This document shows positions 59 to 64,000 of a stretch of 64,000 bases of DNA, in pieces. Both the position numbers and the translations under genes were made by a program. The notes beneath the pieces are model-generated. The model was not told the origin of the DNA, made no database searches, and was given only the letters and a program-made list of their open reading frames with translations. Numbering within the stretch: position 1 is the stretch's first letter; each line of letters begins with the position of its first letter. The stretch lies in the NCBI RefSeq assembly GCF_053078305.1, contig NZ_CP166879.1; one strand, 5' to 3'.

Positions 59-1384
59 ATGAATAAATATCAGGCAGTGATTATTGGTTTTGGCAAGGCT
101 GGAAAAACATTAGCCGTCACGCTGGCAAAAGCAGGTTGGCGTGTGGCTCTCATCGAACAATCAAATGCAATGTATGGCGGGACCTGTATTAATATCGGCT
201 GCATCCCAACCAAAACATTGGTTCATGACGCACAGCAGCACACAGATTTTGTCCGTGCCATACAGCGTAAAAATGAAGTGGTTAATTTTTTACGTAATAA
301 GAATTTTCATAATCTTGCGGATATGCCCAATATCGACGTGATCGACGGCCAGGCGGAGTTTATCAATAATCATAGCCTGCGTGTTCATCGGCCTGAGGGA
401 AATCTGGAGATTCATGGCGAGAAAATTTTTATTAATACTGGTGCACAAACCGTGGTTCCGCCAATTCCTGGAATTACCACCACGCCAGGAGTATATGACA
501 GCACCGGATTACTTAATCTAAAAGAATTGCCTGGGCATTTAGGTATTTTGGGCGGCGGATATATTGGCGTTGAGTTCGCCTCTATGTTCGCTAATTTTGG
601 CAGCAAGGTAACCATTTTAGAAGCAGCTTCGCTGTTTTTGCCTCGGGAAGAGCGGGATATTGCTGATAATATCGCGACGATTTTACGCGATCAGGGCATC
701 GATATTATCCTCAATGCCCATGTGGAGCGAATCAGTCACCATGAAAATCAAGTGCAAGTGCGTAGCGAGCACGCCCAACTGGCGGTGGATGCACTGTTAA
801 TAGCTTCCGGTCGTCAACCGGCTACCGCTTCGTTACATCCAGAAAATGCCGGTATCGCAGTAAACGAGCGCGGGGCAATTGTCGTTGACAAGCGATTACA
901 TACCACCGCAGACAATATTTGGGCGATGGGAGATGTTACCGGCGGGCTGCAATTTACTTACATATCACTGGATGATTACCGCATTGTACGTGATGAGTTA
1001 CTGGGTGAAGGCAAACGTAGTACTGATGATCGGAAAAATGTGCCTTATTCCGTATTTATGACACCGCCCCTGTCCAGGGTTGGTATGACAGAAGAACAAG
1101 CCAGAGAGAGTGGTGCTGATATTCAGGTGGTGACATTGCCTGTAGCTGCAATTCCGCACGCCAGAGTGATGAACGATACCCGTGGGGTATTAAAAGCGAT
1201 TGTTGATAATAAAACCCAACGTATATTAGGGGCATCACTGCTGTGTGTTGACTCCCACGAGATGATTAATATAGTGAAAATGGTGATGGATGCCGGGCTG
1301 CCTTATAGCATATTACGCGATCAGATATTTACTCATCCGTCGATGAGCGAATCACTCAATGATCTATTTTCATTAGTCAAATAA
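59..1384 (+). CDS. rclA: RclA, FAD-dependent pyridine nucleotide-disulfide oxidoreductase (reactive chlorine stress)
   Basis: ORF 32..1384; GFGKAG dinucleotide-binding motif and redox Cys pair (GGTCINIGC); 441 aa from second Met at 59; followed by rclB and rclC homologues in conserved order. Confidence 0.9.
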   Translation: MNKYQAVIIGFGKAGKTLAVTLAKAGWRVALIEQSNAMYGGTCINIGCIPTKTLVHDAQQHTDFVRAIQRKNEVVNFLRNKNFHNLADMPNIDVIDGQAEFINNHSLRVHRPEGNLEIHGEKIFINTGAQTVVPPIPGITTTPGVYDSTGLLNLKELPGHLGILGGGYIGVEFASMFANFGSKVTILEAASLFLPREERDIADNIATILRDQGIDIILNAHVERISHHENQVQVRSEHAQLAVDALLIASGRQPATASLHPENAGIAVNERGAIVVDKRLHTTADNIWAMGDVTGGLQFTYISLDDYRIVRDELLGEGKRSTDDRKNVPYSVFMTPPLSRVGMTEEQARESGADIQVVTLPVAAIPHARVMNDTRGVLKAIVDNKTQRILGASLLCVDSHEMINIVKMVMDAGLPYSILRDQIFTHPSMSESLNDLFSLVK

Positions 1385-1492
1385 ACTCAAAATCAGACGC
1401 CAGAACAAATATTCTGGCGTCTCAGAGAAAAGAATCTTATTAATTCCCTGTTACTCTATAACTTCTTAATCACTTCATTGATGGTATTTTAT

Positions 1493-1729
1493 ATGTTTAA
1501 AAAATCTGTTTTATTTGCAACACTATTATCTGGCGTTATGGCATTTTCCACCAATGCAGATGATAAAATAATTCTGAAACATATCAGCGTCTCGTCAGTA
1601 TCAGCATCACCGACAGTTCTGGAGGATACCATTGCTGATATAGCCAGAAAATATAATGCTTCATCCTGGAAAGTCACATCGATGCGAATTGATAATAATT
1701 CAACCGCAACAGCAGTATTGTATAAATAA
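1493..1729 (+). CDS. rclB: RclB, small periplasmic DUF1471-family protein
   Basis: ORF 1478..1729; signal peptide MFKKSVLFATLLSGVMA; 78 aa from internal Met; sits between rclA and rclC. Confidence 0.8.
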   Translation: MFKKSVLFATLLSGVMAFSTNADDKIILKHISVSSVSASPTVLEDTIADIARKYNASSWKVTSMRIDNNSTATAVLYK

Positions 1730-1740
1730 GGATGTTCACA

Positions 1741-2334
1741 ATGGAAAAATACCTGCACCTGTTAAGTCGGGGAGATAAAATTGGCCTGACATTGATTCGT
1801 CTGAGTATTGCGATTGTTTTTATGTGGATTGGGTTATTAAAGTTTGTCCCTTACGAGGCAGACAGCATTACACCATTCGTCGCAAACAGTCCACTAATGT
1901 CGTTCTTTTATGAACACCCGGAAGACTATAAACAGTATCTGACTCACGAAGGCGAATACAAACCAGAAGCAAGGGCATGGCAATCGGCCAATAATACCTA
2001 TGGTTTTTCCAACGGCCTTGGCGTCGTGGAGGTGATTATTGCTCTGCTGGTTTTGGCTAATCCTGTCAATCGCTGGTTAGGTTTATTGGGAGGGCTGATG
2101 GCATTTACCACACCGTTGGTAACACTCTCATTTTTAATCACCACCCCGGAGGCATGGGTACCCGCATTGGGTGACGCTCATCATGGTTTCCCTTATTTAT
2201 CCGGTGCTGGTCGCTTGGTATTGAAAGATACTCTGATGCTGGCAGGTGCTGTCATGATAATGGCAGATTCGGCGCGGGAAATTCTTAAACAACGCAGTAA
2301 TGAATCCAGTTCAACGTTAAAAACTGAATATTGA
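1741..2334 (+). CDS. rclC: RclC, inner membrane protein (DUF417)
   Basis: ORF 1732..2334; multiple hydrophobic helices; 197 aa from MEKYLHLL; operon position after rclB. Confidence 0.8.
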   Translation: MEKYLHLLSRGDKIGLTLIRLSIAIVFMWIGLLKFVPYEADSITPFVANSPLMSFFYEHPEDYKQYLTHEGEYKPEARAWQSANNTYGFSNGLGVVEVIIALLVLANPVNRWLGLLGGLMAFTTPLVTLSFLITTPEAWVPALGDAHHGFPYLSGAGRLVLKDTLMLAGAVMIMADSAREILKQRSNESSSTLKTEY

Positions 2335-2493
2335 TAATCCGAACACTGTCTGTTGTTCACTTTTTCAGGCGTCAGGCCCCCTTTCTGATGATGAAGCCTA
2401 ACGCCATATTACCGGAGATATGACAGAGTGAAGATCAATATCACTCCCCTGTTAAAAGATTCTTGTCGTCTCAGGTAAAATACATGATTAATA

Positions 2494-3378
2494 TCAATCA
2501 TGTATTTTTACAGCAAGACAACCACGAACAAATTCAGGATTAAAATGTTTTACCGACTCCCCAACATAACCCAAATCAAGCGAACTAATTTGTGCCATTT
2601 CTTTCTCTGTCAGTGAGAAATCCCAGATAGCAAAATTTTCTTCGATACGCTGTTGATGTGTCGATTTCGGAATAACGACCACTCCCCGTTGAATATTCCA
2701 ACGCAGAATGACTTGAGAAATCGATTTTTGATGGGCATCTGCAATACTCTGAAGCAGATTATTTTCAAAGGGTTTATGTCGTCCACCACCTAACGGAGCC
2801 CATGCTTCAGGCTGCACGTTATAATACTTCATGGTTGCCAGCGCCTCTGGTTGGGCAAAATAGGGATGCAACTCGACCTGGTTGACCATCGGTTTAACTC
2901 TTACCGTTTCACAAAAGTTCGCCAGAACATGAGGATAGAAATTGGAAACCCCAATCGCTTTTAATTTGCCCTCTCCATAGGCATCTTCGAGTGCACGCCA
3001 CGCACTGAAATAATCGCGCATGGCCTGGTGCAATAAATAGAGGTCGAAGTATTCTAGTCCCGATTTTTTTAATGATGCTTCAATACCTGCTGCTGCCGTA
3101 TCCTGATTCAACATATCCTGCACCCACAATTTAGACGTTATAAATAACTCTTCTCGGGTACATAAACATTCGGATATAGCTTCACGAACGGCTTCACCGA
3201 CGGCATCTTCATTACCGTATACCGCTGCAGTGTCGATGAGTCGATACCCCGTGCGGATAGCGTTCAACACTGACTGTTTGCACACGTTTTTATCGGTAAC
3301 CTGAAAAACACCAAATCCCATCATCGGCATTTTCAGATTGTTACTTAATACGGAAAATTCCACTGTCAGTCCCTCCAT
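2494..3378 (-). CDS. aldo-keto reductase (DkgA/2,5-diketo-D-gluconate reductase-like)
   Basis: AKR N-terminal signature MPMMGFGVFQ, LIDTAAVYGNE, SNF; alternative GTG start at 3363 preceded by GGAGG. Confidence 0.85.
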   Translation of the reverse strand: MEGLTVEFSVLSNNLKMPMMGFGVFQVTDKNVCKQSVLNAIRTGYRLIDTAAVYGNEDAVGEAVREAISECLCTREELFITSKLWVQDMLNQDTAAAGIEASLKKSGLEYFDLYLLHQAMRDYFSAWRALEDAYGEGKLKAIGVSNFYPHVLANFCETVRVKPMVNQVELHPYFAQPEALATMKYYNVQPEAWAPLGGGRHKPFENNLLQSIADAHQKSISQVILRWNIQRGVVVIPKSTHQQRIEENFAIWDFSLTEKEMAQISSLDLGYVGESVKHFNPEFVRGCLAVKIHD

Positions 3379-3611
3379 TAAGCATGAACAATGAGTCTAC
3401 GTTAAAACGTAACCTCAAATTAGTATGTGGATTTTGATATCACTTATGCAAAAAATTCATTAATAATGTAGGACTGAAACCTCTCTATTTTCGGGGACAA
3501 CGAAGCAGACGCTACCAGTGCTTTTGCCTTCGCCCTTGCTGTTTTTGATACACTTAGGGCCCAGGGCATAACGAAAATGTGCGATATGACAAAGAATTAA
3601 CGGAGAATGTG

Positions 3612-4469
3612 ATGATCAGGCAGAAGATTCTACAGCAGCTCCTGGAGTGGATTGAGTGCAATCTTGAGCACCCTATTTCAATCGAAGATATCGCACAGAA
3701 ATCTGGCTACAGTAGACGCAATATCCAGCTCCTGTTCAGAAACTTCATGCATGTGCCGCTGGGAGAATACATTCGCAAACGAAGGCTTTGTCGTGCCGCC
3801 ATTCTTGTCCGGCTCACCGCGAAATCTATGCTTGATATTGCACTCTCTTTGCATTTTGATTCACAACAGTCATTCAGCCGCGAATTTAAAAAGTTATTCG
3901 GCTGCTCTCCCCGTCTATACCGCCACCGTGATTATTGGGATCTCGCAAATATCTTCCCTTCTTTTTTAATACGTCAACAGCAAAAGACGGAGTGTAGATT
4001 AGTCAACTTTCCTGAGACACCTATTTTTGGCAATTCATTTAAATATGATATTGAAGTGTCGAATAAATCACCGGATGAAGAAGTCAAACTGCGACGTCAT
4101 CATTTAGCCAGATGTATGAATAATTTTAAGACGGATATCTATTTCGTCTCCACGTTTGAACCGTCAACAAAATCGGTCGATTTACTCACAGTTGAAACTT
4201 TTGCCGGTACGGTATGCAAACAAACCGATTCAGAGATGTCGAAAGAGTGGACAATTAACCGAGGACTGTATGCCTCTTTCCGCTATGAAGGTGAGTGGGA
4301 GCACTACCCTGAATGGGCGCGAAACCTCTATCTGATGGAATTACCCGCCAGGGGGTTAGCCAGAGTGAACGGCAGCGATATTGAGCGCTTTTATTACAAT
4401 GAAGATTTCGTAGAAAAGGATGGCAATGATGTTGTTTGCGAAATATTTATCCCTGTTCGTCCGGTTTAG
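3612..4469 (+). CDS. ykgA: AraC-family transcriptional regulator with GyrI-like effector domain
   Basis: ORF 3579..4469; N-terminal AraC HTH region (IEDIAQKSGYSRRNIQLLFRNF ... FDSQQSFSREFKKLFGCSP), C-terminal ~150 aa non-HTH domain; GGAG RBS before Met at 3612; gene symbol by position, not verified. Confidence 0.7.
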   Translation: MIRQKILQQLLEWIECNLEHPISIEDIAQKSGYSRRNIQLLFRNFMHVPLGEYIRKRRLCRAAILVRLTAKSMLDIALSLHFDSQQSFSREFKKLFGCSPRLYRHRDYWDLANIFPSFLIRQQQKTECRLVNFPETPIFGNSFKYDIEVSNKSPDEEVKLRRHHLARCMNNFKTDIYFVSTFEPSTKSVDLLTVETFAGTVCKQTDSEMSKEWTINRGLYASFRYEGEWEHYPEWARNLYLMELPARGLARVNGSDIERFYYNEDFVEKDGNDVVCEIFIPVRPV

Positions 4470-4589
4470 CTGTCGCTATATCTAAATGAACTTATAACGA
4501 GACTACTGTCAGGCAATTCAATAAATAATGGCGTTGAAGATGTCAACGCCATTATTGTTTATTAGAATGTTACTTTCATATTCTTAATA

Positions 4590-7500
4590 TTAGTTCATCG
4601 CCTCCTCGCCCTTTGCCGTATCGGCATCCACCGCGGTAATGGTCACCGTCACTGGCTTCATTTCGTACCCGCCATACGTGAGGGCGTTAAATGTAAACGT
4701 ATAGACACCTGGCTTGCTGGTACTAAATGTACGCGTGATTTTTCCGCTCACGAAATGGTCATTTTTCGACGGCAGGAACTGATAATCCTTCTCCGTCACC
4801 CCTTCTGGCGTCTGAATGTCGACCCACATATTCCCGCCAACGGGGTTATTTGCCGACATCAGGGTCACCTCCAGCTTCGCGGTCGATTTCCCATCCGCCA
4901 CCAGAGATTGCATATCAGATGATGCGGTGAGCACCGCGTTTTTATCATCCGCGACGAATTTAGATTCGGCAGTTTTCGTTGATACCTGACCGTTGGTCTG
5001 ACTCACTTGCGCCGTGAGTGTATATGTCGCCGCAACAGTAGTGGTGGCGGTGAAAATAGCCTGCCCTTGCTCATTCGTTGTCGCTGTGCCATTCGGTTCC
5101 AGGTTTAACGAAGCCGGGCTGGCAGTCAGCGTCACGTCGCTATCTTTCACCAAATTGTTATTGGCATCAGTCACCGTAACTTTATACGTTTGTTTGGCTT
5201 TGCCGTCCGCCAGCGCATAGTTGCCCATCACCTCAATACCGGAGACGGTTGCGGTAGCCTTATCGGCTACAAACGTTATAGTCTGCGTATCCGAAGGCTG
5301 GCTATTCCCTGCCGATGCCGTGATCTCATACGTTCCGGCAGTCACTGAAACCACCTGCAACTCGGCTTTCCCCTCATCGTTGGCTTTCACCCAGACATTA
5401 TCGCCTGTAAGCGGCTTGACACCCCGGGGCAGATTAAAGGTCACCAGGCTCCCTGGAACAGGGTTACCATTTTTATCCTCAACGTTCGCCGTCAGCGTAA
5501 AGGCATCTTTGCCGTTTGCCACTTTTTGAGCAGCGGTGTCTACCTGCAGGTTTGCCTGACCGGTGCTGGCATCCGCGTTGAATTTCACCGTGACCGTCTT
5601 CTGAGCACCATTCACCGAAGCGGAAATATTGTGTTCTCCCGCAACCGTTGACATAAGCTCAATGTCCACTTTCCCTGCCGCATTGGTTGTTACTGTATTC
5701 CCCGTCTTGCTGGTCACACCCTGCGGTAAAGTCAGCGTAACTTCTTGCCCCTGCAACGGGTTACCATAGCTGTCCACGACGGTCAGGGTTATCTGGTTAG
5801 TAGACTGTCCATTAGCCAGTTGGTTATTAACCTTCACTGTCATATCACGAATCTCAGCCTGAGAAGCGTCCCCTGCAACATTCAGCACCAGTGGCTGAGC
5901 AACGGCATTTTGGCCGTTCACTCGCGGCATCACAGACAACTGACCCGCGGCAGATCCCAGCGTTAAGGTCGCCACGTAGACCCCATTACCTTTCTCTGTC
6001 CAGTTTCCTGCTGAAGGACGCTCACTCCCCGTGCTGGCGGCACCGCTAAACACTGGTGCATCTGGCTTCAGCCCGGTGACCGGGTTCCCGTACGCATCCT
6101 TCACGGTGAAGGTGAGTTCCGTCGTCGTTTTGACGGTCGGAGCCTTATTGTCCGCAACAAGCGTAGAGTTCGCTGATGACATCTCCCCGGCGATGACCGT
6201 CAACTGCGCGGCTTCGGTGGCTGCTGGCTGGCCGTTGAAGAGCGGCATGACGCGAAGCTCGCCCGTCTTTCCACCTGTAGTCAACGTAGCAACATAGGAA
6301 CCGTTACCTTTTTCGGTCCAACTGGAAACGGTCGCCCCTTCAGAGGCGGTCCCCGTCAAACTTGCCGACAACGCAAGACCACTGATAGCGTTGCCATGCG
6401 CATCTTTCGCCACCAGCGTCACGGTTGTGCTTTCGCCGGCTTTTACGTGATCTTCTGCGACAGAGACTTTCGACTGGTTTGAAGATAACGCATCAGCCAC
6501 CACGGTTACTTTTGCCGCATTTGCTGCCGCATCCTGTCCATTTAGCTTCGGCATAACTTCTAATTCACCCGCCGTAGAGCCGAGAGTAATCTGCGCAGTC
6601 CACGTCCCATCACCATTATTTGTCCAGCCCGATGCCGTAGAACCTACAGCAGCGGCACCCGCTAATGACGGCGCTTCCGGCGTGAGGCTGGTCACAGGGT
6701 TGTCATAGGCATCTTTTACCGTCCAGATTGCCGTAACTGTACCCCCAACCACCGGTTTATCAGGATTCAGGGTGATGGACGAATGTGCTGCATCAAGCGG
6801 CCCGGCAACAAACTTCAGCGTTTGTTGTAATGTGCCCAGCTGATACTGCTCGCTGAAAGCACGCACAACAACGTTTCCGGCACGGGTCGAAGAAACCGTG
6901 GCGCTGTAAACCCCTGGTTCTATTTCCGAAATGGCACCAACGGTTACACCATTAGTGTCTTGCGGAACAAATCGCAAGCGGCTGGCTTCTCCCGTCACCG
7001 GATTACCCTCGGAGTCCACCGCAGTCAACGTCAACGTATAGGCTTGCTGACCATCAGCAACCACGTCACCTGACGGCTCGTTAGCGCTCAGGGTGGAGTT
7101 TGCCACATCCATCATCGTGGCCCGCAGTTCTGCAGTGACGGTTTTGCTCATGCCATCAACACTAACAGTAATCGTTGCCTCACCTGACTGCGTTCCGGTA
7201 GTAAAGACAGACTGATACACCCCTGCTTCAGTTTCGGTGAACTCACCCAGTGTTGGCTTTGCCTGTGATTTAGTGGCCTTCAGGGAACGAGTCACAATAT
7301 TTCCAGCCGGTTTGAAAGTTAGTTCAGTCTTGATCTGATCTTTCATGCCCGTGACTGGCTGGCCCTCGGCGTCGCGCAGAGACAGCACCAGCGGTTTTTG
7401 CTCATTACCGTTAGCAAGCATTTGAATACGGCTCTGACCGTCAAGCGTTAACGCCGTGCGATCGGCGCTCATACCAGCTCCGGTAATGACCACCTCTGTC

Positions 7501-9393: not shown

Positions 9394-12261
<2,868 letters not shown>

Positions 12262-12401: not shown

Positions 12402-13328
12402 TCAATTTTCGAGTTTTACTCTTTTCTCCACCATAAAATCAATAAAAGCACGAACTTTAGAGGGCATTCTCACCCGTGATGAAACATAAATATAAAATCC
12501 AGGAAATGAAACAGCCCAATCCTCAAGAATCGGCTGTAACTTGCCCGCATTGATATGTTCAGCGATTGCAAAATCCAGATGTTGAATGATACCCGTTCCA
12601 TTCAGCGCCATTCGTATCATGCTTTCGTCATCATTAGAAATATACTTACCTGAAACCTCTATTTCGAACTCTTCATTCCCGCCCGCAACATTAGAAAACT
12701 CCCATGCAGAGAGTGCACCGCTACTTTTATGCCGCAACCGAAGGCAATTATGGTTACTCAGTTCCTGAGGCGTTTCAGGAATACCGTGTTCTTTTAAATA
12801 ATCTGGCGATGCCACAGTAACCAGTTTAATAAGCGGAGAAACAGGAACGGCAGTCATATGCTCATCCAGTCCTTGCTCAAGACGTATGCCCACATCACAG
12901 CCGTCCGCAATAATGTTAGATAAACCGTCATCCATAATGAGTTCTATCTTTGTTTTGGGGTAACGAGTAAGAAACTCGCCAATATGAGGCTCAACAAGCA
13001 TCCGTGCTGCAACACGGGAGGAATTTATTCTCAACAGGCCTGTAGGTTCAAGTTGGGTATCACCAACATCTTTCAAAGCATCATCAATTTGCCCCAAAGC
13101 CGACACCAGCACTTCATACAGACGCTGTCCTTCCTCAGTAAGCGACATATTGCGGGTCGTACGGTATATCAGCTTGGTGTTAAGACGTTCCTCAAGAGAT
13201 TTTAAATTCTGGGACAATGCGGCCCGCGTAATACCCATTTCAGAAGCGGCTCTGGAAAAACTGCCGGCACGAACAATCAGCGCAAACCAGGCAAGAGAAG
13301 GCAAAATTGAAGGCTCTATTTTCATCAT
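12402..13328 (-). CDS. LysR-family transcriptional regulator
   Basis: ORF 12402..13391; LysR HTH (FSRAASEMGITRAALSQNLKSLEERL); divergent from hydrolase gene; probable start at internal MMKIEPS. Confidence 0.8.
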   Translation of the reverse strand: MMKIEPSILPSLAWFALIVRAGSFSRAASEMGITRAALSQNLKSLEERLNTKLIYRTTRNMSLTEEGQRLYEVLVSALGQIDDALKDVGDTQLEPTGLLRINSSRVAARMLVEPHIGEFLTRYPKTKIELIMDDGLSNIIADGCDVGIRLEQGLDEHMTAVPVSPLIKLVTVASPDYLKEHGIPETPQELSNHNCLRLRHKSSGALSAWEFSNVAGGNEEFEIEVSGKYISNDDESMIRMALNGTGIIQHLDFAIAEHINAGKLQPILEDWAVSFPGFYIYVSSRVRMPSKVRAFIDFMVEKRVKLEN

Positions 13329-33183: not shown

Positions 33184-34320
33184 TTATTTCAGTTTGGTCT
33201 GGAAAAATTGTTCGAACTTCGCGAAAGGTATTTTTCCGGCCACGTTATCGTACAGGTCCACGTGATTTGCCCCTGGTACCACCACCAACTCTTTGTCTTT
33301 ACTGCCAACCGCCTTGTAAGCATCTTCAGCAAAATAGCGTGAATGTGCTTTCTCACCGGTCACAATCAGCGTCGGAATGGTTATTTCACTGGCGTAGCTC
33401 AACAGCGGCATATTCATAAATGACAGCGGCATCGTTGCCGTCCACGCCCCGGTAGAGTTAACGGAACGTTCGTGGAAGCCGCGCGGCATGCGATAGTAGT
33501 CAAAGAACTCTTTCAGTACCGGATGAGGATTTGCCGGCAGCGTTTCTGGCAGAATGCGCTCGCCCGCACTGACCTTGCCGTTGCTGTCGACATTAATATC
33601 ATGACCACCGTGAGCGAACGTTCCGCTCTGCGCATCCTTCCAGCGCTGTTCATTCAGATATTGCAGAACAGCACGACGGTCGGCGGTAGAATAACGGTCT
33701 TCGCCATCCCCCACACCATGGCCCATCGCCCGGCTCATGTCATACATCACGCTGGTAGCAACCGCTTTAACGCGGGTATCCATCGCCACGTCGTTCAGCG
33801 CCATGCCACCCCAGCCACAAATACCGAGCAGCCCGATACGGTTGCGATCTACCTCTTTTTGCAGCCCTAAGAAATCCACCGCCGCGCTGAAATCTTCAGT
33901 GTTGATATCCGGTGAGGCGACGTTCCGCGGATAGCCGCCGCTTTCCCCGGTGTAAGAAGGATCGAACGCCAGGGTAACAAACCCTCGTTCCGCCAGCGTC
34001 TGCGCATACAAGCCGCTGGATTGCTCTTTCACCGCGCCAAATGGCCCACTGACCGCAATCGCCGCCAGCTTGCGATCGCCACGGTCTTTAGGCAGGTAAA
34101 GATCGCCCACTAAGGTGATGCCATATCGGTTCGGGAACGATACTTTACGGTGATCGACTTTCTGGCTCTCGGCGAACGTTTTATCCCATTTATCGGTCAT
34201 GGACACAGGGGCATTAGGATTGGTTGAATCAGCATAACTCATTGTCGTGACTCCACTTAATGATGCGAAAAGCAGCATGGCCGGCATCGCGGTTTTTAGC
34301 GTTCGGGTGAAGGCTTTCAT
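33184..34320 (-). CDS. secreted alpha/beta hydrolase, dienelactone-hydrolase-like (paralogue of the 13485..14405 product)
   Basis: ORF 33184..34341; signal peptide; nucleophile elbow LGICGWGG with Cys; C-terminal NHVDLYD. Confidence 0.7.
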   Translation of the reverse strand: MKAFTRTLKTAMPAMLLFASLSGVTTMSYADSTNPNAPVSMTDKWDKTFAESQKVDHRKVSFPNRYGITLVGDLYLPKDRGDRKLAAIAVSGPFGAVKEQSSGLYAQTLAERGFVTLAFDPSYTGESGGYPRNVASPDINTEDFSAAVDFLGLQKEVDRNRIGLLGICGWGGMALNDVAMDTRVKAVATSVMYDMSRAMGHGVGDGEDRYSTADRRAVLQYLNEQRWKDAQSGTFAHGGHDINVDSNGKVSAGERILPETLPANPHPVLKEFFDYYRMPRGFHERSVNSTGAWTATMPLSFMNMPLLSYASEITIPTLIVTGEKAHSRYFAEDAYKAVGSKDKELVVVPGANHVDLYDNVAGKIPFAKFEQFFQTKLK

Positions 34321-34506
34321 AAAAATCCCCATAAAAAACAACAGAGAGATACAGGTTTCCGACGGACAACGCTGCGGTGCTTTACTTTGATGGGGTCATT
34401 ATAGTGAGCAGAATTAGTGCTGATTAGGGGGCGATTAATGCTAAGATTAATACCATATTGTTATAAATTAATGCGAAGATTGCCGGCATGAAGGGGGGAT
34501 GTTTCA

Positions 34507-35391
34507 ATGGCGAAAAGGGAGAACTACAACGAGCTGTACCTGTTTATGCAGGTGGTGCGAGAAGGCAGCTTTACCGCAGCGGCTCAGCGGCTGGGTCTTG
34601 CTCAGTCAGGAGTCAGCCGTTCTGTTCGCGAGCTTGAAGAAAGGCTGGGTGTCCAGCTGCTAGTGCGCACCACGCGTAAACTGTCGCTGACACAAGCAGG
34701 CGAGCAGCTCTACCAGAAGACGGCATCTGGATTTGAAATGTTAGATCTTGGGCTTGCCACACTGGCGCACTATCGAGAGACGCCCTCCGGCACGGTGCGT
34801 ATCAATGCCAGCCAGCACGCGATTGATAAATGCCTGCTGCCAAAGCTGGCGGTATTTAAACAGCGATATCCTGATATCCGGCTTGAACTGATAAATGAGA
34901 GCCGGTTCGTCGATATCATCGAGGAAAGATTCGATGCAGGTGTCCGCCTGGGGCCTGAAGTCGGCCAGGGTATGGTCGCGGTACGCATCACGCCCGATAT
35001 GGAGATGGCAATTGTGGGGACTCCGGAACATTTTCGTCGCTATGGTTTTCCGCAAACTCCGGCGGATTTAAAGGCGCATCCCTGTATCGCCTATCAGTTT
35101 GCCGACGGCAGCGTATACCAGTGGGAACTCAATCAGGATGATAAAAAAATCACTCATCAACCCGAAGGACAATGGGCCCTATCCGACAGCTATATGGAAG
35201 CAGAAGCCGCCCGGCTGGGCCTCGGATTGGCCTATGTTCCTGTTGAACTGGTCGCGGATGATTTAGAACACGGTAAGCTTATCAGGGTGTTGCAGCGTTA
35301 CAGCCTGCGAATGGAGGGATTGTTTCTCTATTACCCTCATCGCAACGTCTCCCCCGCTCTGCGGATGGTCATTGATACATTGAAAATCTGA
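34507..35391 (+). CDS. LysR-family transcriptional regulator
   Basis: 294 aa; HTH FTAAAQRLGLAQSGVSRSVRELEERL; divergent from hydrolase. Confidence 0.8.
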   Translation: MAKRENYNELYLFMQVVREGSFTAAAQRLGLAQSGVSRSVRELEERLGVQLLVRTTRKLSLTQAGEQLYQKTASGFEMLDLGLATLAHYRETPSGTVRINASQHAIDKCLLPKLAVFKQRYPDIRLELINESRFVDIIEERFDAGVRLGPEVGQGMVAVRITPDMEMAIVGTPEHFRRYGFPQTPADLKAHPCIAYQFADGSVYQWELNQDDKKITHQPEGQWALSDSYMEAEAARLGLGLAYVPVELVADDLEHGKLIRVLQRYSLRMEGLFLYYPHRNVSPALRMVIDTLKI

Positions 35392-35629
35392 ACGTTAACA
35401 ACGACCGACTCTTCACGGTGCAATATTGTGTCAGGTAGTCACTCTGCGTTCAATTCCAGGGTCTGCTTTGAGCGAGAAAGAGCAGACTTATCTGTACAAG
35501 GGGACTATCCAGCAATGGAGATCATCCAAAAGAAAAAACCACCTGGCTCCCCTCGACAACCTTAATCCGGGCATTTAGCCTCAATCAACATTTTCATATC
35601 TGTCAGGTTACTTCATTATGAAAACCGAT

Positions 35630-35880
35630 CAATATCGTTGTTTTTGTTGCAACAGTAGAATACGCGTATTTATCCCTCCATTTCTATTAATAACGGCAAT
35701 AAACTGTTCATTTCACTGATATTTAAAATATGCATCCTTTTCAAGCTGTTCAGCGGCGTAAGAAAACGTATTAAATATGAATTCGACGATTTAACCATTT
35801 CTGTCTGATTGGTAATCATCTGTGATTAATGCTGGTCTATTGATTACGCCAGCATTAACCGCTTAGGGATGTATTCTTCC
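35630..35880 (+). repeat. degenerate paralogous copy of the ykgR and ykgO-3'/downstream segments (ykgM and most of ykgO absent)
   Basis: 35633..35745 aligns with 16300..16415 (ykgR region, frame disrupted); 35745..35880 aligns with 17105..17240 (ykgO 3' end and downstream) at roughly 75% identity by eye. Confidence 0.6.
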
Positions 35881-36093
35881 TGATCATATACAGCCCTCGA
35901 AAAAGAGAGAAAATAAAACTGTGTCCAATATTACTCTACCACTCCAGACCGAAGCATCGGTAGAATTAGCAGAACGACTGGTACAATAGATTGGGATAGC
36001 GTCATTTGTCAGGTATTCCATTGCCTGACAAATGACAATTTTGAGTCAATAGACGTGCTTCTTGATCATGTCTTAAAAATTATACCATGAGCC

Positions 36094-36366
36094 TTATGAA
36101 GCATCATTTTTACTGACTGGTGTTAATTTTGCTATCATATAAACTCTGTTCTTAAAAAACGCGCCCAGAATTTTATATGATTTCCCTTGTTTTTCTGCCT
36201 GTAAAGAAATTTCTTTTTCAGTGCTGTCAATGGTTGAACCGACGGCAGTAATCGTTTTGGCGACGCTACTGAATGATAATAAAGACAGTGTAACAACAAC
36301 AATTAAAGAACAGATAGTATTCACGCTAATTCTCCTGACAATTGAGAGGATGAGTTTTATATACAT
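36094..36366 (-). CDS. small secreted DUF1471-like (YjfY/BhsA-type) protein
   Basis: 90 aa; N-terminal hydrophobic signal, then ITAVGSTIDSTEKEISLQAEKQGKSYKILGAF pattern typical of DUF1471 stress proteins. Confidence 0.45.
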   Translation of the reverse strand: MYIKLILSIVRRISVNTICSLIVVVTLSLLSFSSVAKTITAVGSTIDSTEKEISLQAEKQGKSYKILGAFFKNRVYMIAKLTPVSKNDAS

Positions 36367-36536
36367 AGGTATTAAACATGAGTCATATTTACCCCAAGAG
36401 AAAATACTCCTTCTGTAATTAAACCTTCATCTCCTTCGGGGTGAGCAATACATAATACATCTTGCTATGAAAACACAGGGATATATAAATCTTCCTTCTG
36501 ACCTATTTAATAAAACGTGAATGTAAAAGTTATTCT

Positions 36537-36779
36537 TCAGTTTGCAGATGCAGTGGGTCTGATGGTAATTTCGGTTGTATCAACGCTTTCGGGAGATTCA
36601 ATAATATGCCTTACCGCACGGGCAATATCCGCAGGTTGAAGTGCAACAGAACGGTAGGCGTCCATTGCCTTCATGGTTTCCACATGGGTAATGGTTGAAG
36701 CCAGTTCACTTTCGACAACGCCAGGATTTACGCAGGTCACACGGATTTTCGAGCTTTCCTGCCGTAAGCCATCAGAAAT
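36537..36779 (-). pseudogene. C-terminal fragment of a short-chain dehydrogenase/reductase
   Basis: 67-aa ORF matching only the SDR C-terminus (NPGVVESELASTITHVET ... ADIARAVRHIIESPESV); no N-terminal Rossmann part; abuts a second gene fragment. Confidence 0.55.
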
Positions 36780-36780
36780 A

Positions 36781-37216
36781 GCCCGTACTGCAAATCAGGC
36801 AGCGTGAAATGGTCGTTGCCTCTCCCTCCTATCTCGCAGCCAACAGCACACCTGTTCATCCGCGTGAACTTGTGAATCATAAGTGTATCGGCTGGCGTCA
36901 ATCCCCGGATGTTGCGCCTTATCGCTGGCCATTTGAAGAAAACGGGAGAGCTTTCGACCTTGCGATTGAACCACAGATTACGACTAATGATCTGCGTCTG
37001 ATGTTGAGGCTGGCTCTTGCCGGCGGAGGAATAACAATTGCCACTCAGGAAACTTTCAGGCCGTATATTGAAAGCGGTAAGCTTGTATCTCTGCTTGATG
37101 ACTTTCTTCCACAATTTCCGGGCTTCTATCTGTATTTCCCACAGCGTCGCAATATTGCACCAAAGCTCCGCGCCCTGATTGACCACGTCAAGGAATGGCG
37201 GCAGCAATTGGCTTAA
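36781..37216 (+). pseudogene. C-terminal fragment of a LysR-family regulator (substrate-binding domain only)
   Basis: 135-aa ORF with LysR C-terminal motif FPGFYLYFPQRRNIAPKLRALIDHV but no HTH; junction with SDR fragment near 36780. Confidence 0.55.
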
Positions 37217-37343
37217 ATGTCTGCACCTGCATTGCCTGATGTCAGAACAGTATTTTGATTAATTGCCAGGGTTACAATGGCATAAATACGGCACAGGAGG
37301 AAACGTGGTGTATTTGAATATGGGGTAACTACTTGATTTAAAT

Positions 37344-37389
37344 GGTGCCGATAATAGGAGTCGAACCTACGACCTTCGCATTACGAATT
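37344..37389 (-). repeat. 3' 46-nt fragment of tRNA-Thr(CGU): att direct repeat marking the island boundary
   Basis: reverse complement ATTCGTAATGCGAAGGTCGTAGGTTCGACTCCTATTATCGGCACCA is the anticodon stem to CCA end of tRNA-Thr; the 5' half is absent, so not a functional tRNA. Confidence 0.75.
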
Positions 37390-37553
37390 AGCGAGACCAG
37401 TGATTCAAGATGTTCACAGCTGTTTCAGCATACAATAAAAAATATATAAAAATCAACAAAATACACATAAATGCAGTATCAAGATGTTTCGCCTTGTTTC
37501 TGATGATATCATGTTAAATGTGTACCCCACTGTGTACCCAAAAGGCTGAAGAT

Positions 37554-38873
37554 ATGACTTTTACTATTACACAAGACAGACAATTGGCTTCATTGACCGT
37601 TACTAAAGAAGAAAAAGAAATCTTATTTGCTGTAAAATCTAAAGCTGGGGGAGGACTCTTTATACGCGTTCGTTATGGTAGCGACAATAAAAGCTGGATT
37701 TATCGTTATCGAATAGCTCAAAAGCCAGCTAAATTAACACTAGGTAGTTACCCTGCCATGGGATTAGCTCAAGCTCGTAAAGCTCATGCGGATGCAATTG
37801 AATTAGTAAGAAAAGGTATAGATCCTCGTCATATTAGAAAAAATGAAAAACAAAAAAATGAACAAATGATTATTTACTCTGAATTATGGAAAGATTGGAT
37901 AGAATTCAGAAAGACAAGTAAACCAATTAGCACCAGAACCCTTGCAGATTATGAAGGGACTTATCACCGCCACCTTGAAAAAGCATTAGGAAACCTTCGC
38001 ATTGACGAACTTACCAAAAGCGTTATTTTTGAACATCTCAGTAATGTAAGAAAAACCAGTTCTGAAGCAGTTCGTAAAGGATTAATTATTCTAAATATGA
38101 CTCTTGATCATGCCAACTTACAGGGTATGCTTGAGCATAACCCAGCACGACTGCTCAAACCAGCAATGTTTGGTGCATCGATGAATAAACCTCGCGAGCG
38201 ATGGCTTCCTGAGAATGAACTCCGGATGCTATGGAAGGCTTTGGATGATGCTACTGTTGGAGGAGGCTCCATTGCATCTGGTGGCTATGGAATTTCCTCT
38301 AGTGTGGTATTATCTCATTCTGTCGCAAATGCACTCCGTTTGATTATTTTCACAGGAGTGCGCCGCTCTGAAGCGGCACAAATGCGCTGGGATCAAATTA
38401 ATGGAGAGCGTTGGACCATACCAGCCACTAAAAATGGGAAAAGCCATATTGTTACTTTACATCCGTATATGCTTTCTTTAATAAAAACACAACGTGAATT
38501 CACTGAAGGTGCATATGTTTTTGGTTCTACTAGCAAACCTGGCTTTCCCATCACAAATGACGCTCTGACTCGCGCGTTAGAAAGGGTTCGCTCTAAGTAT
38601 CTAGCCGAACTTACTCCATTTTCTCCTCATGATCTGCGTAGAAGTGTTGCGACTGGATGCGCTGAATACCTTGATGCTCCAGAGCGCCTAATAGAGTTAC
38701 TGTTAAATCATGTACCCAAAGACCGTTTAATACGAACATATCAAGTCGGACAACAAGCTGAAAAATTAAAAAATTTATTTATAGAATGGGGGAATTTTAT
38801 TATGAATAACGTCATTACTGTGCAGCAGAATGCTCCGGATAATGTTATTCATATAAAATTTGGGAACAGATGA
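37554..38873 (+). CDS. intF: tyrosine recombinase, P4-like prophage integrase
   Basis: ORF 37518..38873; N-terminal arm-binding/SAM-like region and C-terminal catalytic domain (HDLRRSVATG ... LLNHV... Y); adjacent to tRNA fragment; symbol by analogy to the CP4-6 integrase. Confidence 0.85.
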   Translation: MTFTITQDRQLASLTVTKEEKEILFAVKSKAGGGLFIRVRYGSDNKSWIYRYRIAQKPAKLTLGSYPAMGLAQARKAHADAIELVRKGIDPRHIRKNEKQKNEQMIIYSELWKDWIEFRKTSKPISTRTLADYEGTYHRHLEKALGNLRIDELTKSVIFEHLSNVRKTSSEAVRKGLIILNMTLDHANLQGMLEHNPARLLKPAMFGASMNKPRERWLPENELRMLWKALDDATVGGGSIASGGYGISSSVVLSHSVANALRLIIFTGVRRSEAAQMRWDQINGERWTIPATKNGKSHIVTLHPYMLSLIKTQREFTEGAYVFGSTSKPGFPITNDALTRALERVRSKYLAELTPFSPHDLRRSVATGCAEYLDAPERLIELLLNHVPKDRLIRTYQVGQQAEKLKNLFIEWGNFIMNNVITVQQNAPDNVIHIKFGNR

Positions 38874-38965
38874 TAAAAATACATGCATGGTCTGAGATAC
38901 CCTGTCTACTCGACCATGCAGTATGGTTCAACTAAATCAGTCACAACAAGAAATGATTAGTTTTA

Positions 38966-39814
38966 TTAGATATTGTATGGGATTATTTCTGGATAATACT
39001 TCGCAATGATGTCATTTAGCCGATCAACCAGTTCTGGTTTTCTGAACGTGATATGCGCGGAGCCCTTCTTAAAGTATCTGATGCTGAACATCTCATCTTC
39101 ATAGCAGGCTTTGCCCTGAACGGAGCGGATGTGATCATCCAGCCGAATAATGATATTTTCCCGGCTGTCGGGGATCGGTTTGCCGCTGAACAGGTGCAGC
39201 ATTCTTTCCAGGTCGGCAAGTCGATCTGCCTGTTGCCCGGTGATAAGATGCAATCCCCACCGGTCCCACCTCACCAGATTGTTGACGATAATTTTACTGC
39301 CAAATTTACAGGGGCAATTGGTTTTGTAATCCCAGCTCAGTCCCCTGAAGACGTTGATGACCCCACGCTCAAACACTTCATCCTTATTCTGGTGTAGCTG
39401 CTCAAACGTACTCAGTATATTCTCTTCACTGATTTCCGGAAAATTATCGTACTCCAGTGACCGGTACCATGTATCACGGGCCTGTGCATCCATTAAGGAA
39501 AGCATCCCTGAACGTTGCATCAGGTCACGCCAGATTTCACGGTCAAGGTTGCGGGTGATGGCTTTCATTGCCGTTTCAGGTTTCTCCATCAGCCAGCAAC
39601 CGCAGCGAAAATCCTGTTTCATGGCCCAGTCCGGAGCAGTTTTACCTCCAATACTTTCTGTCATTGCTGATATTTCAGCCAGTTGCCGGATAAGTGTGTC
39701 GATTTGCAGAAGTGTGCTCTTTCGTACAGCCAAAATGTGGCGGATACTGGTTGAGCAGATAACGTCCGTATGCCCGTTGACCACTTCCGGACGGGCGATT
39801 GTGATGCCTGACAT
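38966..39814 (-). CDS. hypothetical island protein (282 aa), function unknown
   Basis: long ORF with coding-like composition between integrase and a hairpin; CGC and CPC motifs; no family recognised. Confidence 0.5.
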   Translation of the reverse strand: MSGITIARPEVVNGHTDVICSTSIRHILAVRKSTLLQIDTLIRQLAEISAMTESIGGKTAPDWAMKQDFRCGCWLMEKPETAMKAITRNLDREIWRDLMQRSGMLSLMDAQARDTWYRSLEYDNFPEISEENILSTFEQLHQNKDEVFERGVINVFRGLSWDYKTNCPCKFGSKIIVNNLVRWDRWGLHLITGQQADRLADLERMLHLFSGKPIPDSRENIIIRLDDHIRSVQGKACYEDEMFSIRYFKKGSAHITFRKPELVDRLNDIIAKYYPEIIPYNI

Positions 39815-63000: not shown

Positions 63001-64000
63001 TGGTACTGGCACTCTGACTCTGCGTTGTCCCGGCCTCACGGCGGTCGTGCGTTGTCTTACTGCTGCCAGTGGTGAAACCAATACCACCGGTACCCATCAG
63101 ACCGGATTTCTTCGTTTCCTTAAAGCGCCAGGACGTATCTGTACTGGTGGCAGCAAGAACATCAACATGGTTACCCGCCGCCAGTGACACATCCCGGTCA
63201 GCCACCACATCCGAACCCTCTACCGTCAGGTTATTACCGGCGTTAACGGTCACGCGGTTTCCCGACAACAGGGAGCCCTTCTCACGGGTGACGCTGTCTT
63301 CCGTGATGGTCCGGGTGGTCTGATGGCTGAGGAGACGGTTACGGGTTTCCCCTGATTCACTGTAGTGATAATCACTTTCCGTGGCAGTACCCAGTACGAT
63401 GTCATGACCGGCATTCACACGGATATCGCCCTTTGCCGTTACAGCGGTCGCAACTGAGGTGATATCCCGTCCGGCAGTAACCGTGATGTCACCGCCACTG
63501 GTCATGTCTGTTCCCTGCTGCCGGACCGAATCATGAACCGTCTTCATGCTGAAAGTGCTGTCGTGGTCACCTGTGCCTGTGGACTCCGCAGCCATGTTCA
63601 CATCCCGTCCGGCGCGGATATCCATACTGTTTTCAGCCATAATACCGGCAGCCTGGCTGTTCACATCACGACCGGCGGAAAGCATCAGACTGTTCCCGGC
63701 AGTGACCGTGGGGGCCACGGCATGAGTTTCATACCACCCGGACCCGCCATAGCGACGACGTTCTCCGGCCTGTATCGCGTTCATGTTCAGGTCATTACCG
63801 GCGGACAGTAACACGCTGTCACCGGCAGAAACGGCGGCACCGGTGATACTGATATCCCCGGCTGCGCCCATAAACAGTGAGTCCGTTGCCCTGACAGCAG
63901 CCAGCGGACCGGTATCCGTTCCGCTGAAATGGTTATATCCGTTGTTCATCGCCCACTGTTCTGTACGGGTGAGGTTACTGATGTTTCCGGTGGCGCTTTC
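60023..64000 (-). CDS. cdiA: CdiA contact-dependent inhibition exoprotein, 3' portion (FHA repeats, pretoxin VENN, C-terminal toxin); 5' end beyond window
   Basis: ORF open to window edge; filamentous-haemagglutinin-type repeats; VENN motif (NSVENNYLS) ~313 aa before C-terminus; C-terminal ~110 aa resemble TNT-type domain. Confidence 0.85.

Follow-up and report, generated by a model that had tools for sequence, protein, structure and literature searches.

A pseudogene scar beside thrW in Escherichia coli, most likely left by one deletion in a divergent SDR/LysR gene pair

The segment at positions 36537-37216 of the DNA analysed here (a stretch of 64,000 nucleotides, referred to as the window) is best read as a pseudogene scar. 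In this reading, to which we assign a probability of about 0.93, a single 1,041-bp deletion in a divergent SDR/LysR gene pair left two dead gene remnants, and the island that now lies next to them arrived independently of that deletion. Both remnants are already annotated as pseudogenes by RefSeq, and the segment is a case of ordinary gene decay that is already known. As such it is of low importance; it illustrates, in a case that can be reconstructed completely, how genes decay next to a tRNA integration hotspot.

In a megablast search against 5,426 complete E. coli genomes, positions 36400-37420 mapped to the E. coli chromosome beside thrW, on the flank opposite to proBA. The gene order at this place is paoABCD, an MFS transporter, an alpha/beta hydrolase, a first LysR gene, a ykgR fragment, a hypothetical gene, the SDR gene, a second LysR gene, thrW, and finally proA and proB. 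Here strain EC1515, with collinear flanks, has both the SDR gene and the second LysR gene in full length; they encode proteins of 240 aa and 299 aa (protein pair WP_021577018.1 and WP_021577017.1) and are divergent over a 98-bp spacer, and the pair is also whole in O157:H7 (WP_000361969.1 and WP_000687183.1) and in O145:H28. The EC1515 and O157:H7 pairs occupy the orthologous locus, and their flanks are collinear with those of the window; unlike the window, the intact alleles keep the 1,041 bp that hold both N-termini and the 98-bp control region. Alignment to intact homologues, which the sequence-only reading had proposed as a check, thus reconstructed the ancestral locus as a divergent SDR-LysR pair.

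The flank on the SDR side of the segment contains several other features. A second divergent pair, which is intact, lies at 33184-35391 and consists of an alpha/beta hydrolase gene (33184-34341, minus strand) and a gene for a 294-aa LysR (34507-35391, plus strand); two further LysR paralogues are located near 11728-12198 and 12837-13325 (minus strand). At about 35622-35690 on the plus strand there is a 69-bp remnant, for which the PGAP label in related genomes is 'small membrane protein YkgR, missing N-terminus'. This remnant is a second small pseudogene in the flank, and it is present even in genomes with an intact SDR/LysR pair. Between the ykgR fragment and the SDR gene we found a 90-aa ORF with a hydrophobic N-terminus (36094-36366, minus strand), which is listed as 'hypothetical protein' WP_024227134.1 in relatives, was not matched by any Pfam or NCBIfam model, and is conserved in every allele in which this stretch is retained. 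A terminator-like hairpin with a 15-bp stem and a T-rich tail (36001-36036, plus strand) separates the ykgR fragment from this ORF; it is the only terminator-like site in 36000-37600, which is no more than shuffled sequences yield.

Alignment to EC1515 identified positions 36537-36795 (minus strand) as the C-terminal remnant of the SDR family oxidoreductase, comprising the last 85 of its 240 codons (residues 156-240) and the stop codon. The translation reads FAVRAISDGLRQESSKIRVTCVNPGVVESE...TASAN*, and this protein tail (FAVRAIS...TASAN*) is 100% identical to residues 156-240 of the intact EC1515 protein. Against Pfam adh_short_C2 the tail aligned with profile positions 163-216 of 236 (E=0.0026), which is under the gathering score, as expected for a fragment; the intact EC1515 protein is matched by many SDR NCBIfam models, with E-values down to 1e-52. 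The TGxxxGxG cofactor motif of the Rossmann fold, present as TGASSGIG at residues 8-15 of the intact EC1515 protein, falls within the deleted 1,041 bp and is absent from the window. The catalytic stretch Y151-C-A-S-K155 is located directly upstream of the breakpoint and is deleted as well, with only the last base of the Lys155 codon left. For the same stretch in ET350, Santai, ES5, and TUM18780, PGAP gives the label 'SDR family oxidoreductase, incomplete, missing N-terminus'.

Positions 36796-37216 on the plus strand are the C-terminal remnant of the 299-aa LysR-type regulator, the orthologue of the gene from which K-12 yagP derives, and comprise its last 139 codons (codons 161-299) and the stop codon. 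The translation (...RQREMVVASPSYLAANS...EWRQQLA*) is collinear with the EC1515 LysR from nt 6001 of the EC1515 locus on, and the first in-frame ATG, at 36809 (Met165), starts a 135-aa ORF that is still open. Pfam LysR_substrate (PF03466) matched the tail with E=1.9e-22 but only over profile positions 79-207 of 209, so that the effector-binding domain is incomplete. There was no Pfam match to HTH_1 (PF00126) in the tail; the intact neighbouring paralogue at 34507-35391 matches both HTH_1 and LysR_substrate. Comparison with the intact orthologue showed that the HTH domain, the linker, and the first part of the effector-binding domain were in the deleted segment. In related genomes the tail is marked as a pseudogene by PGAP. 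The sequence-only reading had described an SDR and a LysR C-terminal fragment that lie on opposite strands and meet near 36780; it was right about both fragments and about the strands, and its meeting point was off by about 15 bp, the junction being at 36795|36796.

We aligned the window using MAFFT with eight intact alleles (EC1515, O157:H7, O145:H28, three baboon isolates, a goat isolate, and 88-3493). In each of these comparisons (8/8) the window had a single contiguous gap of 1,041 bp, and what had been called a deletion scar on the basis of the letters proved to be one clean gap. The missing DNA consists of 464 nt from the 5' end of the SDR gene (codons 1-155, including both of the motifs named above), all 98 bp of the intergenic spacer, including its one promoter-like site, which is on the SDR strand, and 479 nt from the 5' end of the LysR gene (codons 1-160). 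The junction (36795-36796) is blunt, with 0 bp of microhomology and no filler. Neither blastn nor tblastn over the whole window detected the deleted DNA or the deleted protein halves elsewhere in it, and only LysR paralogues with 35-39% identity were found. Between the two breakpoints, the longest direct common substring was 5 (null mean 6.1), and the longest inverted repeat was 7, a length reached or exceeded by 23% of null pairs; neither value is above chance.

The window and EC1515 align in two blocks, 34000-36795 and 36799-39000. With EC1515 as the sole reference, a 3-bp filler CAG at 36796-36798 was suggested, and this candidate was dropped. CAG is found in six of the eight intact alleles, in which the right breakpoint reads CCGG|CAGGCAGCG, and it is therefore ancestral, so that no filler is present at the junction. 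EC1515 has TAA in place of the CAG of the window (EC1515 locus 5998-6000), a Lys161/Arg161 polymorphism; CAG/TAA is a standing polymorphism that occurs in two unrelated backgrounds. Over the LysR 3' end, EC1515 and the window are identical at 623 of 625 positions, and the 622 of these 625 positions that lie outside the CAG/TAA site are all the same. The left flank of the window is about 3% divergent from EC1515. A LysR tail nearly identical to that of EC1515 but with the other variant at codon 161, next to a left flank about 3% apart, implies that recombination had a boundary in the deleted segment or close to it. Given that the allele closest in the right flank, EC1515, has TAA, there is also a small chance that a 2-nt difference was brought in at the junction.

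The collection of 5,426 complete E. coli genomes contains several states of this locus. An intact SDR/LysR pair is present in 389/5,426 genomes, and the exact junction of the window, with its blunt 1,041-bp deletion, in 24/5,426. These 24 are independent genomes from various hosts and countries, each with the junction as one uninterrupted alignment, which is far beyond chance. In the K-12 yagP type (2,684/5,426) the end of paoD is joined to LysR nt 562, with about 6.1 kb lost and the microhomology CATAA (K-12 locus 5382-5792), and in the A10 type (180/5,426) the ykgR fragment is joined to LysR nt 670, with about 2 kb lost and the microhomology AA (A10 locus 4652-5231). The ST70 type, found in at least one genome, has a deletion that begins in the SDR gene and ends in a phage integrase fragment abutting an intact thrW (ST70 locus 5084-5896). 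About 2,100/5,426 genomes have no trace of the pair. Truncated LysR alleles together make up about 53% of the complete E. coli genomes, compared to 7% for intact ones, and the same LysR gene was truncated independently at least four times (window, K-12 yagP, A10, and ST70 types). The thrW flank is a recurrent deletion site with at least five independent allele states, and the window allele is a rare one. Full-length homologues that are naturally this short were not found in our comparisons; the only annotated relative of comparable length is K-12 YagP, which itself results from a different deletion.

Directly beyond the remnants, where a tRNA fragment and an island boundary had been noted from the letters, we indeed found both. 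A 46-nt copy of the 3' end of thrW, tRNA-Thr(CGU), lies at 37343-37388 (minus strand); it is identical to thrW of ET350 at 46/46 positions, and the sequences diverge from 37389 on. A complete tRNA was not detected in the window by ARAGORN, positions 35300-37700 had no Rfam match at E<=1, and no second copy of the 46-mer occurs within the 64,000 nt, the island continuing past base 64000. The first gene of the thrW island, which starts 166 bp from the 46-nt copy (37554-38873, plus strand), encodes a P4-type tyrosine integrase (Pfam Arm-DNA-bind_3, Phage_int_M, and Phage_integrase; NCBIfam PRK09692). The matching CDS in EC1515 and STEC17-190, with about 99% DNA identity over the stretch, is annotated as integrase WP_000144688.1. 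The island (37389-64000) is of the CP4-6/CP4-44 type and extends beyond the window, which contains neither its far end nor the intact thrW. It carries genes for DUF4942, CbtA/CbeA toxin-antitoxin, RadC, antirestriction protein, Ag43, and YeeP-like GTPase, as well as a DNA methyltransferase with a DEAD/DEAH helicase, a BRO-N protein, and an immunity protein with CdiA. The copy of this island in STEC17-190 is 99.8% identical but about 2.5 kb longer, owing to an IS66 element that splits agn43; the Ag43 gene of the window therefore appears uninterrupted. The 46-nt thrW copy represents the att duplication produced by the island and corresponds to ptwF of K-12, where the order is intF-ptwF-yagP; the window is arranged in the same way. 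That thrW is an integration hotspot is recognised (PMC7545054), and a literature search on yagP and thrW yielded general reviews of thrW as a hotspot only, with nothing on the present scar.

Scar and island were also found apart from each other. The sequence of ET350 follows that of the window from the left flank across the junction and the LysR tail as far as 37388, with 99.5% identity over 6,990 bp, and the thrW of ET350 is intact and unoccupied. Next to the same scar, ES5 has a different prophage integrase (ES5 locus 4106-5383), TUM18780 an Avs2 (AVAST type 2) anti-phage defence island (TUM18780 locus 4373-6991), and O157:H16 Santai an IS/AraC/phage remnant (Santai locus 6268-7487). As for the island, its 99.8% identical copy in STEC17-190 stands beside a K-12-type flank, and in EC1515 the intact LysR gene adjoins a closely related island (99.8% identity in the 2.2 kb directly following the junction, 96.9% in 5.2 kb). 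The complete E. coli collection contained no genome with both the scar and the island of the window. Since the scar is combined with an unoccupied thrW as well as with four different insertions, and the island with intact and with K-12-type flanks, we conclude that the deletion and the island are independent.

The catalytic and DNA-binding halves and the promoter region are lost, and both remnants are therefore non-functional. The remnants are most likely silent, judging from the loss of the promoter region and from a crude consensus match, which returned no promoter-like site in 36400-37600. Over the last 113 LysR codons, which are shared by the alleles, pooled pN/pS was 0.04 among intact alleles, 0.15 between intact and truncated ones, and 0.29 among truncated ones, values that derive from few substitutions and non-independent pairs. 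This trend is consistent with relaxed constraint after truncation.

Several other origins of the junction can be considered. That the deletion was a by-product of island or prophage traffic at thrW, by imprecise excision or by integrase action at secondary sites, is suggested by the location of the scar at a recognised hotspot, 547 bp from the att copy, and by the ST70 allele, whose deletion does end in an integrase fragment. However, both breakpoints in the window are inside chromosomal genes, the att copy and the LysR 3' end between scar and island are untouched, and the breakpoints resemble the 46-nt thrW core no better than chance (maximum common substring 7, equal to the null 95th percentile of 7). 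As the scar is seen where thrW is unoccupied and where it holds any of four unrelated elements, and the island where the flank has no scar, we consider such an origin extremely unlikely. The past rearrangement at an integration hotspot that had been read from the sequence thus holds as to the location at thrW and the deletion-prone nature of the site; the event was a simple deletion only, with no mechanistic tie to integration. There is also only a very small chance that the deletion goes back to an IS that inserted into the SDR-LysR region and subsequently disappeared along with adjoining DNA. The IS normally stays behind after an IS-adjacent deletion, no IS is inside the pair in the 8 intact alleles or in the truncated loci examined, and no IS end, IS remnant, inverted repeat, or target-site duplication was found at the junction, although such events are common near islands, IS21, IS66, and IS3 are present in related islands, and a junction without microhomology would fit ends made by a transposase. 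An assembly or sequencing artefact that brought the two fragments together is vanishingly improbable, as 24 complete genomes, each assembled independently, contain the same junction within one alignment piece.

A further alternative concerns the fate of the remnants, namely that the LysR tail is a functional, stand-alone effector-binding-domain protein similar to YagP, which is kept by selection. This would agree with the open reading frame and its in-frame ATG at 36809, with the three independent truncations of the window, K-12, and A10 types, all of which kept the frame and are stop-free over the last 77-139 codons, and with the annotation of K-12 YagP as a protein and not as a pseudogene. 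The fragment, however, starts in mid-fold, at LysR_substrate profile position 79 of 209, and therefore cannot make up the two-lobed effector pocket; it is also without a promoter-like site or a native 5' region. Moreover, pN/pS is higher in the truncated alleles, the gene is wholly absent from about 2,100 of the 5,426 genomes, and the PGAP call is pseudogene, all of which makes a functional protein highly improbable. It is likewise very unlikely, in our estimation, that the recurrent truncation reflects selection and not neutral decay, be it selection against the SDR/LysR module or selection for an expressed YagP-like effector-domain stub that interferes with paralogous LysR regulators.

We therefore return to the pseudogene scar with an independently acquired island, for which the following history can be proposed. 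The ancestral locus would have contained the genes for the 240-aa SDR and the 299-aa LysR, diverging from the 98-bp intergenic control region. One deletion would then have taken SDR codons 1-155, the whole promoter/operator spacer, and LysR codons 1-160, and would have joined the two 3' tails such that they face outward. With the joined tails pointing away from each other, neither is preceded by a promoter of its own. The junction is identical wherever it was found, which argues that the deletion occurred once. Because the junction is blunt and free of repeats, IS ends, and att-like sequence, RecA-independent illegitimate recombination or the end-joining of a break is the probable route. The island would later have integrated into, or been exchanged onto, a chromosome that already carried the scar. 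In more general terms, the thrW flank holds several old and stable deletion alleles, compared with which the att site changes its occupants far more rapidly (one scar with five neighbours; one island with three flanks). The 1,041-bp junction, found in 24 of the 5,426 complete genomes, is a rare lineage marker.

The ancestral pair fits the classical arrangement of a LysR-type regulator (LTTR) and a divergent target gene, with regulator and SDR diverging over a short spacer. As in a classical LTTR, the intact LysR protein has both an HTH_1-type and a LysR_substrate region, and it matches the nearest NCBIfam model, YafC, from end to end (E=3.5e-47), but with 160.7 bits versus a cutoff of 470 bits. 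Unlike a classical LTTR, the LysR of the window has lost its DNA-binding half and the operator region, and no LTTR function is therefore possible. The closest parallel to this truncated state is K-12 yagP (b0282) at the distal end of the cryptic prophage CP4-6, in which the same LysR gene is cut to its 3' end. In K-12 as in the window, the thrW 3' duplicate comes after the LysR 3' end and a P4-type integrase comes after the duplicate, in the same order and orientation. The K-12 truncation is nevertheless a separate event, its join at LysR nt 562 being equal to position 36878 of the window. The K-12 deletion took the MFS transporter, the alpha/beta hydrolase, the first LysR gene, the ykgR fragment, the hypothetical gene, and the whole SDR gene, whereas the window keeps the first five of these and 85 SDR codons. 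Finally, the K-12 and A10 junctions have 2-5 bp of microhomology, whereas the junction of the window is blunt.
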